Source of the DNA: a virus
Lineage: Duplodnaviria > Caudoviricetes
DNA length: 64,000 bases
Strand: one strand, 5' to 3'
IMG/VR virus record: IMGVR_UViG_3300025601_000007
In this document: positions 10,999-14,469 of the stretch, piece by piece
Layout: each line of letters starts with the position of its first letter
How positions within the stretch are numbered: position 1 is the stretch's first letter
Made by a program: the position numbers and the translations under genes
The notes under the pieces: model-generated
What the model saw: the letters and a program-made list of their open reading frames with translations, nothing else
Database searches by the model: none
What the model was told of the DNA's origin: nothing

Positions 10999-11939
10999 TT
11001 AGAAGCCTGGCTGTTCAAAGTTGATTCCAGCAATCTCATCAGGCGCTGCTCCTGCGTTTGGTGCTAAATCTGTGAGATTTGACTCTAAAGCAGCATTAAC
11101 GCCACGTGTGAATCCTTTTCCAATGTCTATCAGAACAGATGGATTTGAACGCTCTTCCCACTCAAGCGTGTCAAGGTATTCTTTAAAAGCGCTCTCGCCT
11201 TCTTGGCTGGCATGTAAAGCCTGTTCACCTGCTCCAAGTGTGCCTTCACTTAATCTTTTTTTTTAGACTCCATTAGAGTCGCAACTTTCTCAGCCTGGAT
11301 TTTAGTCCATTCTAGCAATTCATTTCTATTCTTGAAGGTAAACCCTTCTTTCGGCATCTCAATTGCTTTAGCTATAGCTTCTGGAACTGCTTCATTTTGT
11401 GCATCTTCGTGAACATCTGCTCCGTTCATCCCGACATTTGTTGCCTGGTCTGAGCTTAGATTTCCTTTTGCACCGACAAAAGTTTTTGTCCCTTCGTCAA
11501 CTTCCTTGTCCATAGAGTTCATTTTTGCTTCGCCATCTTTATCAAATGGTTCACCTTTCTCTTTGGTAGGGTTTGATTTTTTTGAATCAAAGTTTGCAGT
11601 TTTTTGACCAGCTGTGGCCGATTGGTCACTTGAAAGGTCTCCACCTGCGTTAACTTTAACCGCAGTAGACGCCGCTCCGTCACAGCCAGCCTCTTTGTCC
11701 ATTGTATTCATGGCAACGTTCATAGGGTCTTTGGCAGCAACTTTCGCTGATTTAGTTTCCTCGTTTCCACCAATGTTCTTAACTTTGGCTTCTGGATTTG
11801 CGCTTGCTCCACCAACCATCTTGTTCATAACAACATCAGTTGGATTGCCTGCTGCTTTTATCTCGTCAGCCTCGATTAGCCTTTGAGCTTGTCCGTGGAT
11901 GTATCTTACGAGGTCTTCTTTTCTGATTTGCTTAGACAT
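10999..11939 (-). CDS. Low-complexity probable head/scaffold-type protein; 229-aa ORF (11250-11939) extended by 85 aa through a frame change at an A9 run
   Basis: ...TCT AAA AAA AAA GAT TAA; one extra A reads RLSEGTLGAGEQALHASQEG...NFEQPGF* to 10999, ending just before the terminator; internal LSSDQ and MNxMDKE repeats. Confidence 0.7.
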
Positions 11940-11970
11940 GTGTATTCGTTTTGTTTGCTAGAATTCCCTC

Positions 11971-11978
11971 ATAAATAG
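11971..11978 (-). promoter_or_regulatory. Putative late-promoter motif CTATTTAT
   Basis: ATAAATAG on plus strand upstream of 11939. Confidence 0.6.
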
Positions 11979-12027
11979 CAAGGAAAACAACAAATTCAAT
12001 TTTTACGAAACTTTTATAGACAACCTC

Positions 12028-12036
12028 CGTATATTA
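12028..12036 (+). promoter_or_regulatory. CGTATATTA promoter-like motif upstream of the tRNA-like gene
   Basis: AAACTTTT..CGTATATTA, 8 nt before the predicted 5' end. Confidence 0.55.
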
Positions 12037-12044
12037 GAAGTAAA

Positions 12045-12121
12045 TAGCGTGATGTGGAAGTAAGACTCTCATTAAGTCTTTGGGGGATACCCCTGCTGCT
12101 GTTCGATTCAGCACACGCTAC
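12045..12121 (+). tRNA. Atypical tRNA-like RNA: CAT anticodon, no D-stem, long variable arm
   Basis: Acceptor TAGCGTG/CACGCTA; T-arm TGCTG-TTCGATT-CAGCA; anticodon arm (A)AGACT-CTCATTA-AGTCT(T); variable arm GGGG-GATA-CCCC; D region only ~10 nt (ATGTGGAAGT); no encoded CCA. Confidence 0.7.
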
Positions 12122-12147
12122 TAAAAAAAATATAACTCAAAAAGCAT

Positions 12148-13869
12148 ATGAATATAGTTAAGACTATTCTACTTGGAGGTATTGTTTACTTCTGTGTTTA
12201 TTTTGGACTTCCAACTTGGAAAATGGACAACCCCAACATGTGGCTTACATTTTTGTTTTGGGGAATTTGTGTCACAGTATTAGGGATAAATTGGTCTAAA
12301 AGCAAAGCCACACCTTTCACTTGGGTAGGGGTAATAATTAGTGTTTTAACAATAACTGTGCTTCTTTTACAGTCGATAGGGGGGAATCGATGGTTAAATG
12401 ACGAAAAATATCGAGATTTAATTGGGGTAGTGGAATATAAAGTATATTCAGATGAGGTGGCTCCAATTGACCAGTCAAAGATATTTGTTATACCGCCATC
12501 AACTGCTTTATTACTCGGCCAGAAGTCTCTTGTAGACCCAGAAGATACCACTGAAAACGTAGTTGGGTCTCAAGTTGAGATTGGTGAGTACGTTCTCCAG
12601 GAGGTTAATCAAGGGATTTACTATGTCGCTCCAACGCTTCACACAAGCTATTGGAAATGGCGTAGCAACAAACAAGGCACACCAGGATATGTAATGGTGA
12701 ATGCTGTTGATGAGAAAGATATTCAATACATAGACACGTACAACATTGTGTATCAACCAAAGGCTTGTTTTGACCAGAACTTGGAAAGGCACCTGTGGTT
12801 GAGCGGGTATTCGACAACTTATTTGACAGATTATCAGTTTGAAATTGACGACATGGGAAAGCCATATTGGGTTGTGACTATGTATGACAGAACTATTGGT
12901 ATGTCAGGGAAAGAGGTTTCTGGATGTTTAGTTGTAGACGCTGAAACTGGGGAAATAGAACAGTACACCACTAAAGAGGCTCCTGATTGGGTGGACAGGG
13001 TCCAGCCATCTCATATAATCCATGAACAACTGGTCGACTGGGGTTCTTTAGCAATGGGTTACATTAATTGGGATGATAAAAACAGAAAGAAAATCACAAA
13101 TGACATGAGTGTTGTTTACGGAAACGATGGAGATTGCTACTATTATACAGGTGTAACTTCTGTTGGGAAAGACGATGCTACTATTGGATTTATTGAAGTT
13201 AACACAAAAACTAAGAAAACCATTTTTTACAAAAAAGCAGGAGCCACCGAAGACGCTGCAATGAAGAGTGCTAATGATATGTATGCTGACCTTGGCTATA
13301 AAGCCACTTTTCCTAAAACATATAATGTTAATGGGGAGCCAACATACATAATGGGCATGCAAGCTTCCTCAGGCATGATTAAGGCCGTCTGTATGGTTAA
13401 CGTTGAAAACTATAATACTGTCGGAAATGGGGAGACTATAGGTTCAGCACTGCGCGATTACCGAGGCAAGTTAACTAGAAATATGCATGATGCTATATTA
13501 TCTGAGGACATTGAAAAAGATTTAGCTTTGCATGTCATACAAAGAATTAGGCAGGATGCTGAAAGTGGGATGTTCTATTTACTTTTTGAAGGTCAGGATA
13601 AAATCACCACTGTTGATGGAGTAAGTTTCCAAGAGGTTTTTTTAAGCGAAAGACAGGATTCAGTAGTTGTAGGAGTTATGCCTTCTGAATCGGAAACAGA
13701 ATCGGCTGTCTATTTTGACAACATTAACTTAGACATTCAAGTGTCCGACAAACAAGAAGAGTTAGAGTTTAATTTAAAAAATCCAGTAATTTACGATAAT
13801 GGTAATGAGACGGCCTTGCCTACGGGAAATAAAAAAGATTCTCGAAAAAAAGGTATACTTCCGAATTAA
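12148..13869 (+). CDS. Membrane-anchored protein (three N-terminal TM segments, large soluble domain)
   Basis: 573 aa; three hydrophobic segments in aa 1-78; repeated PYWVV / YYYTG / PTYIM type motifs. Confidence 0.75.
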   Translation: MNIVKTILLGGIVYFCVYFGLPTWKMDNPNMWLTFLFWGICVTVLGINWSKSKATPFTWVGVIISVLTITVLLLQSIGGNRWLNDEKYRDLIGVVEYKVYSDEVAPIDQSKIFVIPPSTALLLGQKSLVDPEDTTENVVGSQVEIGEYVLQEVNQGIYYVAPTLHTSYWKWRSNKQGTPGYVMVNAVDEKDIQYIDTYNIVYQPKACFDQNLERHLWLSGYSTTYLTDYQFEIDDMGKPYWVVTMYDRTIGMSGKEVSGCLVVDAETGEIEQYTTKEAPDWVDRVQPSHIIHEQLVDWGSLAMGYINWDDKNRKKITNDMSVVYGNDGDCYYYTGVTSVGKDDATIGFIEVNTKTKKTIFYKKAGATEDAAMKSANDMYADLGYKATFPKTYNVNGEPTYIMGMQASSGMIKAVCMVNVENYNTVGNGETIGSALRDYRGKLTRNMHDAILSEDIEKDLALHVIQRIRQDAESGMFYLLFEGQDKITTVDGVSFQEVFLSERQDSVVVGVMPSESETESAVYFDNINLDIQVSDKQEELEFNLKNPVIYDNGNETALPTGNKKDSRKKGILPN

Positions 13870-13902: not shown

Positions 13903-14469
13903 ATGCGACGAGGCAAAAAAGCCCAACCTAAGAGACAGGATAAATTCACACACAGAGTCAACCATCAGATTAAAGTACTAGAGGTACGGTTAACAGGTGA
14001 TAGTGACAAGTTTGTATCAGGAGAAGTGTATAAGACCGAAGAAGCTAAAAACATAGCGGCAAGTCTTGAGCTTGATTTAATAGAGATTTCCCCAAACGCA
14101 AAGCCTCCTGTATGTAGAATTATAGAGCTTGGTAAATTTAAATATGAAATCAAAAAGAAGGCGCGAGAGCAAGAAGCTAAGCAGCGAATAGCAAAAGTTG
14201 AAACAAAAGAGATTCGTTTAGGGCCAACAACTGGTCCAGGTGACTTAGACTTTAAACGCGCTCATGCAATCAGCTTCCTGGAGGATGGAAACATTGTCCG
14301 TCTAAGCATGTTTTTCCGTGGCAGAATGATTGCAAATAAAGAAATTGGCCAAAAGCTAATGCTAGAGTTTGCGTCCTCCCTTGAAAGCTATGGGATACCG
14401 TTAGCGTTACCTAAGTTCGAAGGAAAAAGACTAAAAGTGGATATTAAGCCCAAGCCTAAACAAAAATAA
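13903..14469 (+). CDS. infC: Translation initiation factor IF-3
   Basis: HRVNHQIK..EVRL..LDLIEISPNAKPPVCRIIELGKFKYE.KKK..KEIRLGP....DLDFK..HAISFLEDGNIV...FFRGR. Confidence 0.96.
   Translation: MRRGKKAQPKRQDKFTHRVNHQIKVLEVRLTGDSDKFVSGEVYKTEEAKNIAASLELDLIEISPNAKPPVCRIIELGKFKYEIKKKAREQEAKQRIAKVETKEIRLGPTTGPGDLDFKRAHAISFLEDGNIVRLSMFFRGRMIANKEIGQKLMLEFASSLESYGIPLALPKFEGKRLKVDIKPKPKQK

Follow-up and report, generated by a model that had tools for sequence, protein, structure and literature searches.

The window examined here is a 64,000-nt stretch of DNA from a phage of the Caudoviricetes (IMG/VR record IMGVR_UViG_3300025601_000007), and all positions are given in its numbering. We analyzed a 77-base element on its plus strand, at 12045-12121. 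It sits in a divergent spacer of 208 nt, flanked by a 229-aa minus-strand gene (11250-11939) and a 573-aa plus-strand gene (12148-13869). A second copy was not found within the window. Read as RNA, the element runs UAGCGUG-AUGUGGAAGUA-AGACU-CUCAUUA-AGUCU-UU-GGGG-GAUA-CCCC-UGC-UGCUG-UUCGAUU-CAGCA-CACGCUA-C. Single-strand folding gave a minimum free energy of -26.3 kcal/mol (z = -2.8 against dinucleotide shuffles, with 2 of 200 shuffles equally stable). A first-pass annotation, made from the sequence alone, had described acceptor, T and anticodon arms, a GGGG-GATA-CCCC variable hairpin, a GG-containing strand in place of the D arm, U at position 37 and no encoded CCA, and all of these are seen in the fold. 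The parts of the element are as follows, helix X being a 3-bp helix formed by two distant strands.

12045-12051, plus strand: 5' strand of the acceptor stem, UAGCGUG, pairing with 12114-12120; double changes in 5 of 7 pairs among six to eight homologues.
12052-12059, plus strand: D-loop-like single strand AUGUGGAA, 8 nt, with GG at 12056-12057; 7 of 8 positions invariant in eight homologues.
12060-12062, plus strand: 5' strand of helix X, GUA, leading straight into the anticodon stem; partner at 12094-12096; stands in for the D-stem 3' strand.
12063-12079, plus strand: anticodon arm, stem AGACU/AGUCU and loop CUCAUUA, with CAU at 12070-12072 and U37 at 12073; 3 of 5 stem pairs covary.
12082-12093, plus strand: variable-arm hairpin GGGG-GAUA-CCCC; double changes in 3 of 4 pairs, loop sequence varies.
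12094-12096, plus strand: 3' strand of helix X, UGC; the T stem begins directly after.
12097-12113, plus strand: T arm UGCUG-UUCGAUU-CAGCA with a canonical T loop; stem kept in seven members, GUAAG/CUUAC in L033 (4 of 5 pairs replaced).
12114-12123, plus strand: 3' strand of the acceptor stem, CACGCUA, then C (12121) and UA; CCA is not encoded.

In a simple fold, the acceptor and anticodon stems are separated by 10-11 unpaired nucleotides, ATGTGGAAGT(A), with the GG inside. With helix X, the layout becomes a 7-bp acceptor stem, the 8-nt strand AUGUGGAA, the 3-bp helix X, the T arm and the acceptor 3' strand, and helix X encloses a three-way junction with the anticodon arm (5 bp) and the variable hairpin (3-4 bp). 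All 24 pairs of this fold are standard pairs in the window copy. The tRNA core is represented by the 7-bp acceptor stem, the 5-bp T stem and the T loop UUCGAUU, with an extra unpaired A at the junction in 6 of 8 family members. A D arm, that is, a local stem of 3-4 bp with a D loop at positions 9-26, is not present, and only eight unpaired nucleotides precede the next helix. The earlier description of the RNA as D-arm-less holds in that there is no D hairpin, but it overlooked the covarying helix (12060-12062 with 12094-12096) that replaces the D stem, and AUGUGGAA itself looks like the D loop of a class II tRNA.

Covariation was assessed on an alignment of six sequences (A2) and in a larger table of eight. 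For the simple fold, A2 contained double changes in 11 of 22 pairs, and none of 500 shuffles reached the observed measures. With helix X included, the six sequences showed double changes in 14 of 24 pairs and about 92% of cells paired, again matched by 0 of 500 shuffles; in slid controls, pairing dropped to 31-56%. An all-against-all column scan run with no prior returned, as its top 12 covarying pairs, exactly pairs of the acceptor, helix X, anticodon and variable stems, those of helix X ranking 2nd, 3rd and 7th. Helix X is paired in all eight sequences, with three to four pair types per position and double changes in all three pairs:

Window: 5' strand GUA, 3' strand UGC.
L001: 5' strand GCG, 3' strand CGC.
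L014: 5' strand GUG, 3' strand CAC.
L015: 5' strand ACG, 3' strand CGU.
L017: 5' strand CCA, 3' strand UGG.
L019: 5' strand CCA, 3' strand UGG.
L021: 5' strand GUG, 3' strand CAC.
L033: 5' strand GGU, 3' strand ACC.

Because helix X covaries and pairs in every sequence, the comparison indicates that the D stem has been rewired, not lost, with helix X replacing the D-arm hairpin. Nearest-neighbor energies do not favor helix X over the simple fold, and its support comes from the covariation. A sixth anticodon-stem pair proposed by RNAfold (12062:12080) was rejected: its 3' base is invariant, and covariation links its 5' base to 12094. Helix X continues through its 5' strand into the anticodon stem, in the manner of D-stem residues 23-25, and its 3' strand leads to the T stem like residues 45-48, in the same direction as the missing D-stem strand 10-12. 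By analogy with canonical tRNA geometry, helix X can plausibly occupy the place of the D stem, and the GG of AUGUGGAA can be expected to make the usual elbow contacts with the T loop. We also considered whether the variable-arm loop displays GAU as a second anticodon. This idea was discarded: GAUA occurs in only 3 of 8 loops and GAAU in two more, and the remainder are unrelated.

The homologues were collected by pattern scans followed by covariance-model screening. The search pattern behind four members required the AUGUGGAA motif, L021 was found without that requirement, and in three scans the anticodon loop was not required. Eight distinct full-length members and a partial ninth were identified: the window copy; L001, from a syntenic relative of the window; five in IMG/VR, namely L014 (a 98-kb record, ~98% complete), L015 (identical to L020 from a 248-kb record, G001), L017, L019 and L021; and L033, on a 36-kb contig of a Bacteroidia metagenome-assembled genome. 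The ninth lies on a 396-nt salt-lake contig that matches 12052-12111 with five differences and has different flanks; these flanks are again complementary (acceptor stem UGGUGUA/UACACUA), placing this copy in another genome from the same lake. Further IMG/VR scans, including one free of the anticodon and one with relaxed D and T motifs, added no member. Two pattern-scan matches in metagenomes were both chance occurrences in high-GC coding DNA, 27 of 28 hits in a genome collection were likewise chance and failed the covariance model, and the remaining IMG/VR pattern hits also fell by chance in coding DNA. Searched against 151 Bacteroidota genomes, model R2 hit L033 and, weakly, a host class II tRNA-Leu(CAA), and nothing else.

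Exactly one copy of the element is present in each phage record. The neighboring genes of the carriers are mutually unrelated, and include ParB-like, pyrophosphatase, AAA ATPase and tail-fibre-like genes as well as unknowns. The 248-kb phage has the element in a region of 54 tRNA genes, on the strand of the tRNAs and a few hundred bases from tRNA-Phe; L021 has a tRNA cluster 3.6 kb from the element; and the 98-kb phage has zero canonical tRNAs, the element being its sole tRNA-like gene. One copy per phage, placed in or near tRNA clusters, is the usual pattern of phage tRNA genes. Since the neighboring genes are unrelated among carriers, the comparison points to a trans-acting product. At the level of sequence, the evidence shows a single-copy, trans-type RNA gene selected for a tRNA-like three-dimensional layout and for the CAU loop. 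The search for covarying homologues that the first-pass annotation had suggested thus returned eight full-length members with compensatory changes in unrelated phage contexts. Its fallback, a decayed pseudogene with no conserved homologues, fails on the same evidence, and we regard the element, from these alignments, as neither a chance fold nor a decayed pseudogene.

Standard tools do not report the family. ARAGORN with default settings made zero tRNA and zero tmRNA calls across the 64-kb window. Rfam gave no match to the element at the gathering score, nor at E <= 10 in a 351-nt search around it, and the Rfam tRNA model gave no match at E <= 1 in four other family members. The view that this is not a normal cloverleaf tRNA is borne out both by the missing D arm and by the silence of these tools. 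Because it lacks a D arm, the family falls outside the canonical cloverleaf family in the strict sense and is, judged by sequence and covariation, an uncatalogued tRNA-type RNA.

The conserved unpaired positions are those of a tRNA with some departures. Seven of the eight members have CUCAUGA as their anticodon loop; CUCAUUA, with a U37 seen in no other member, belongs to the window copy only. CAU and U33 are invariant. In the AUGUGGAA strand, the single varying position is the third, which is U in L021 and gives AUUUGGAA. A72 is invariant, whereas position 1 is U in five members (the window included), C in two and A in one. Pair 3:70 is G-C in seven members and C-G in one, and the 3' end reads A-C-(U/A)-A in 8 of 8. 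The three G-C pairs typical of initiator tRNAs (29-31:39-41) are absent, as the first-pass annotation had noted for the window copy and as we confirmed across all eight members: 29:41 and 30:40 vary (A-U, G-C, C-G and others), while at 31:39 there is either U-A or a mismatch.

The mature ends can be drawn in two registers, because canonical tRNAs of the same phages and of a host end A73-C-A-A. The alignment allows an alternative register with the invariant A as discriminator, the first base at position -1 and an A-A mismatch at 7:66. Most members would then regain the A73 that is typical of Met and Ile tRNAs; the window copy and L019 would instead have U1-A72 with C73. Four canonical tRNA genes show the A73-C-A-A end in place of CCA (L055, L058, L021 and the Bacteroidota host L061), and this motif may be a conserved start of the 3' trailer that is relevant to 3' processing in this group.

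We compared the family with known RNAs, beginning with the canonical CAU tRNAs (Met, fMet and Ile2; RF00005). Shared features are the 7-bp acceptor stem, the 5-bp T stem, UUCGAUU, the elbow GG, the 5-bp anticodon stem, a 7-nt loop with C32, U33, CAU and A38, and placement in tRNA clusters in some phages; the phage tRNAs that neighbor the element also resemble it in having no encoded CCA. In contrast to these tRNAs, the family has no D hairpin, a long-range 3-bp helix encloses its anticodon arm and variable hairpin, and most members carry an extra A between the T and acceptor stems. Initiator tRNA-fMet has a C1xA72 mismatch; A72 is invariant in the family, but the canonical C-A pair is not found in most members. 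tRNA-Ile2 combines CAU with t6A-modified A37 and A73 and is a substrate of the lysidine synthetase TilS, whereas the family has CAU but not A37, and A73 only in the alternative register.

Class II tRNAs (Leu, Ser and Tyr) share with the family a variable-arm hairpin between the anticodon and T arms. They keep the D-stem 5' strand (10-12), which in the family is replaced by the last three bases of the variable region; their anticodons are those of Leu, Ser and Tyr and their D arm is complete, whereas the family has CAU and an incomplete D arm. The host tRNA-Leu(CAA) (L061:1494-1579) has a D loop, AAUUGGUAGA, then CGC and the anticodon stem, an arrangement similar to the family's AUGUGGAA and helix X. 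This resemblance suggests that the family descends from a long-arm tRNA that lost its D-stem 5' strand. CAU tRNAs of the cloverleaf type whose variable arms are long (83, 85 and 93 nt) also occur in the same phages (L058, which is G001:144000-161500, and L021:6243-6335). The jumbo-phage tRNA clusters (L058 and L021) further include CAU tRNAs with a U-U mismatch at 1:72, and L056 holds a tRNA with anticodon CUA, labeled 'Pyl' by ARAGORN, which is a possible amber suppressor.

Plant mitochondrial t-elements, mascRNA and the tRNA-like domain of tmRNA have an acceptor/T minihelix without a D stem, within a longer transcript, and no conserved anticodon arm. tmRNA also has G3-U70 and a tag reading frame, whereas 3:70 of the family is G-C or C-G and there is no tag. 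D-arm-less mitochondrial tRNA-Ser(AGY) (Kuhle et al. 2022, PMC9427863) and an engineered D-arm-less tRNA, 'mini HisT', which is accepted by E. coli EF-Tu and ribosomes without adaptation (PMC11551756), share with the family the missing D hairpin and a short connector. Neither has a helix replacing the D stem or a long variable arm; the family has both, together with the GG/T-loop elbow, and unlike mini HisT it occurs naturally, in phages that infect bacteria. In allo-tRNAs the acceptor/T stack is 8/4 or 9/3 and the D arm is normal (Mukai et al. 2017, PMC5389517). They are like the family in their long variable arm and unexpected anticodons, and some occur in phages and some are suspected of non-translational roles (PMC5389517), but the family's stack is 7/5 and a D hairpin is absent from it. 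Phages do not come up in a 2020 review of non-canonical tRNAs (PMC7609411), and a 2024 paper describes all known bacterial tRNAs as cloverleaves. In our literature search we found no paper on a natural bacterial or phage tRNA or tRNA-like RNA wired like this family.

The 248-kb phage (G001, the source of L015) has further unusual tRNA-like sequences. At L015:8300-8400 there is a tRNA 3' half, with T arm GGTGGTTCGAACCCACC and an acceptor strand, followed ~15 nt later by a tRNA 5' half with a textbook D arm (ATAGCTCAGTTGGTAGAGCAC); ARAGORN makes no call here, and one possible reading of the segment is a permuted or split tRNA-like unit. Another unusual CAU RNA is found at L015:8690-8770, beginning 100 nt downstream from the family member. 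Its features are a C1-A72 mismatch, the anticodon arm CUCAC-CUCAUAA-GUGAG, a short variable loop, a 3' end of A-C-U-G, ~13 nt without a clear D stem and one extra base between the T and acceptor stems. This RNA is just over the threshold of the Rfam tRNA model (31 bits, G001:109673-109740) and is missed by ARAGORN.

We examined the site of the element in syntenic relatives of the window. The features that flank it downstream and upstream are:

12028-12035, plus strand: promoter-like box CGTATATT, 9 nt upstream of the element and present in all syntenic relatives; its promoter function is presumed.
12148-13869, plus strand: 573-aa gene for a predicted membrane protein; its leader carries the element, and its ATG lies 27 nt after it.
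13903-14469, plus strand: phage IF3 gene (Pfam IF3_N 2.7e-22 and IF3_C 7e-21; phrog_9787), 1.8 kb downstream of the element.

Seven contigs were fetched for this comparison through relatives of the 573-aa protein. All syntenic relatives keep the spacer blocks ATAAATAG, AACTTTT and CGTATATT, the last ~20-25 nt before the ATG. At the same site, L001/L002 (79% protein identity) has a homologue of the element, and the element is cleanly absent from L003, L004, L005, L007, L008, L009 and L010. Because these relatives keep the spacer blocks without it, the element is a ~90-nt insertion in the operon leader, just after a pre-existing promoter-like box, and is dispensable at the window site. No target-site duplication is visible at the insertion. 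The first-pass annotation had assigned the element a promoter-like motif of its own; that motif is CGTATATT, which belongs to the downstream gene, as relatives without the element keep it directly before that gene. The box occurs four times in the window against one expected. The spacer of L006 holds unrelated-looking filler, of which the 3' part alone aligns, weakly, with the element. L006 is at best a weak candidate for a decayed copy: of 500 shuffles, 19 reach an equal score, and the covariance model returned no hit there. In a tree of the protein, the window and L001 are sisters (99/99) within a six-member clade of unresolved inner order.

Several observations concern the surroundings of the site. 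The divergent spacer (window 11960-12040; L001-L010) has further conserved blocks, TTTGCTAGAATTC, (T/A/C)ATAAATAG and GGAAAAC, the second of which resembles a T4-type late promoter. The 573-aa membrane protein belongs to no Pfam or PHROG family and has more than 1,200 homologues, including close phage relatives and over a thousand bacterial proteins, many in Flavobacterium genomes, where some sources label it 'cell shape-determining protein'; the gene is probably host-derived and carried by the window phage lineage. Within the IF3 gene, at 14074-14147, several short salt-lake contigs of high depth match 70 nt at 80-90% identity with unrelated flanks, and this stretch is a conserved IF3 segment common to other lake organisms or phages. 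The public runs that contain the window sequence are salt-lake metagenomes. INPHARED phage records gave no DNA match to window 11000-13000, and IMG/VR gave no close relative of either neighboring protein or of an exact 24-mer. As for IF3, the first-pass annotation was right that it lies close to the element here, but the proximity is not general: IF3 was not found in five other carrier records, and close relatives that bear IF3 lack the element. We therefore rejected a general link between the two.

What does this RNA do? We consider it most likely, with confidence that is evenly balanced, that the element yields a phage tRNA which is processed, can be charged and decodes AUG, or AUA once lysidine has been introduced. 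Three lines of evidence favor a working tRNA: (i) the acceptor/T minihelix, T loop, GG, U33 and CAU loop are kept; (ii) some carriers have the element among their tRNA genes, and one has no other tRNA-like gene; and (iii) bacterial EF-Tu and ribosomes tolerate an engineered D-arm-less tRNA (PMC11551756). In this proposal, the element would be transcribed as the first part of the membrane-protein/IF3 transcript, excised by host RNase P and a 3' tRNA-processing nuclease, and given its CCA by the host enzyme. It would then take an L-like fold, with the acceptor and T stems stacked, the GG of AUGUGGAA docked on the T loop and helix X stacked on the anticodon stem, and the charged RNA would serve as an extra CAU-anticodon adaptor on the ribosome. 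The sequence comparison shows the fold with its conservation and covariation, the single copy per record and the tRNA-like placement in the genome; processing, CCA addition, charging, decoding and nuclease resistance are properties that we infer for the element.

Charging would most likely be by MetRS through CAU, or by IleRS if the host TilS converts C34 to lysidine. MetRS depends mainly on the CAU anticodon, so Met would be the simplest identity and Ile via lysidine the alternative. A TilS gene was not found in five carrier records, and AUA is used at 22 per 1,000 codons in the window phage. The unusual core and anticodon loop (G37/U37, and an unpaired 31:39 in most members) could protect the RNA from host nucleases that attack tRNAs. 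It has been proposed that changes in the anticodon loop let phage tRNAs evade anticodon nucleases (PMC10264068), and G37/U37 and the peculiarities at 31:39, at 1:72 and at the bulged A would fit that proposal whether the RNA decodes or only mimics a tRNA. We hold more tentatively, at somewhat less than an even chance, a fuller version of this reading: a natural tRNA without a D hairpin working on bacterial ribosomes as a private Met or Ile(AUA) adaptor unseen by host defences. It may even be initiator-like, because its 1:72 pair is weak or absent, and in the window phage it would be co-transcribed with the phage's IF3.

A number of observations weigh against a decoding tRNA. CAU tRNAs (Met, fMet and Ile2) normally have A37, whereas seven of the eight members have G at this position and the window copy has U, and a pyrimidine there is hardly known in working tRNAs. 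Pair 31:39 is U-A in the window copy but mismatched in five of the eight members. Three further departures lie where EF-Tu and synthetases bind: three members have a mismatch at 1:72, the extra unpaired A separates the T and acceptor stems in six (all but the window copy and L019), and the discriminator is C in the 7-bp register. The absence of the initiator-type G-C pairs also counts against it, as does the clean absence of the element at the window's own site in seven relatives. With at least four canonical CAU tRNAs of its own, the 248-kb carrier has no gap for the element to fill, and no other anticodon was found on the same scaffold in the IMG/VR scans, including the anticodon-free one.

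Much of this evidence can be read in favor of a tRNA mimic that does not decode, which we judge unlikely but the most serious competitor. Such an RNA would be processed like a tRNA and would act as a decoy or sponge for a host factor recognizing CAU tRNAs (e.g., an anticodon nuclease or some other defence or enzyme aimed at tRNAs), or through loop-loop pairing. The loop CUCAUGA is non-standard yet strictly conserved, and its G37 creates a 6-nt palindrome, UCAUGA; the unpaired 31:39, the mismatched 1:72, the bulged A, the four canonical CAU tRNAs of the tRNA-rich carrier and the restriction of the scaffold to CAU are all in keeping with a mimic. Defences that target tRNAs, and phage counter-measures, are on record (PMC10264068; PMC11555353). 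However, the acceptor/T minihelix, T loop and GG elbow are fully kept, which would be superfluous for a decoy acting through its loop only. There is no linked gene for a partner protein, the neighbors of the carriers being unrelated, and the window copy, in which the palindrome is lost (UCAUUA), still has one of the best scores with the family model.

A third explanation, which we consider improbable, is that the family is real but the window copy was recently inactivated and is kept by inertia. It would account for the U37 that only this copy has and would agree with the dispensable site, with the possible decayed remnant in L006, weak as that alignment is (19 of 500 shuffles), and with the slight damage to the L001 copy (acceptor mismatches at 1:72 and 7:66). 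Against it, all 24 pairs of the window copy are standard, it scores 99-100 bits with the family model, third of eight, and four salt-lake runs show zero variants inside the element.

Even less probable, in our view, is a cis-acting leader element, in which the structure would be an RNase P/3'-nuclease processing signal or a stabilizing signal for the membrane-protein/IF3 mRNA, in the manner of plant mitochondrial t-elements, and the released RNA would have no role. The first-pass annotation had put forward a processing role, beside those of decoy and regulator, as a possibility. The window and L001 copies do sit between the promoter-like box and the start codon, 27 nt before the ATG, with no terminator-like site found between the element and the 573-aa open reading frame, and in all carriers the element has the same orientation as the next gene. 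An acceptor/T minihelix is sufficient for RNase P, however, and a processing signal would not need the anticodon loop or the variable/helix X core, which are conserved and covary. Moreover, the downstream genes differ in every carrier, at distances of 27 to ~330 nt, the copy in the 248-kb phage is surrounded by tRNAs and not by the start of an mRNA, and relatives have the same operon without the element. Finally, a chance tRNA-like fold or a misread ordinary tRNA is so improbable that we dismiss it: relaxed ARAGORN can force a weak Thr(AGT) cloverleaf, but only with mismatched D and anticodon stems, whereas covariation backs the non-cloverleaf fold and Rfam gives no tRNA match at E <= 10 here or at E <= 1 in four other members.

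The family keeps every functional end of a tRNA while wiring its core differently, which indicates that the cloverleaf is not the sole solution in bacterial systems. tRNA finders and Rfam overlook a class of phage genes, and counts of phage tRNA repertoires are too low as a result. The family also offers a natural, structurally orthogonal tRNA scaffold for genetic-code engineering, and it is a tangible candidate for phage tRNAs shaped to evade host immunity that targets tRNAs. If the RNA is a mimic that does not decode, it would represent a new kind of phage counter-defence or regulatory RNA.

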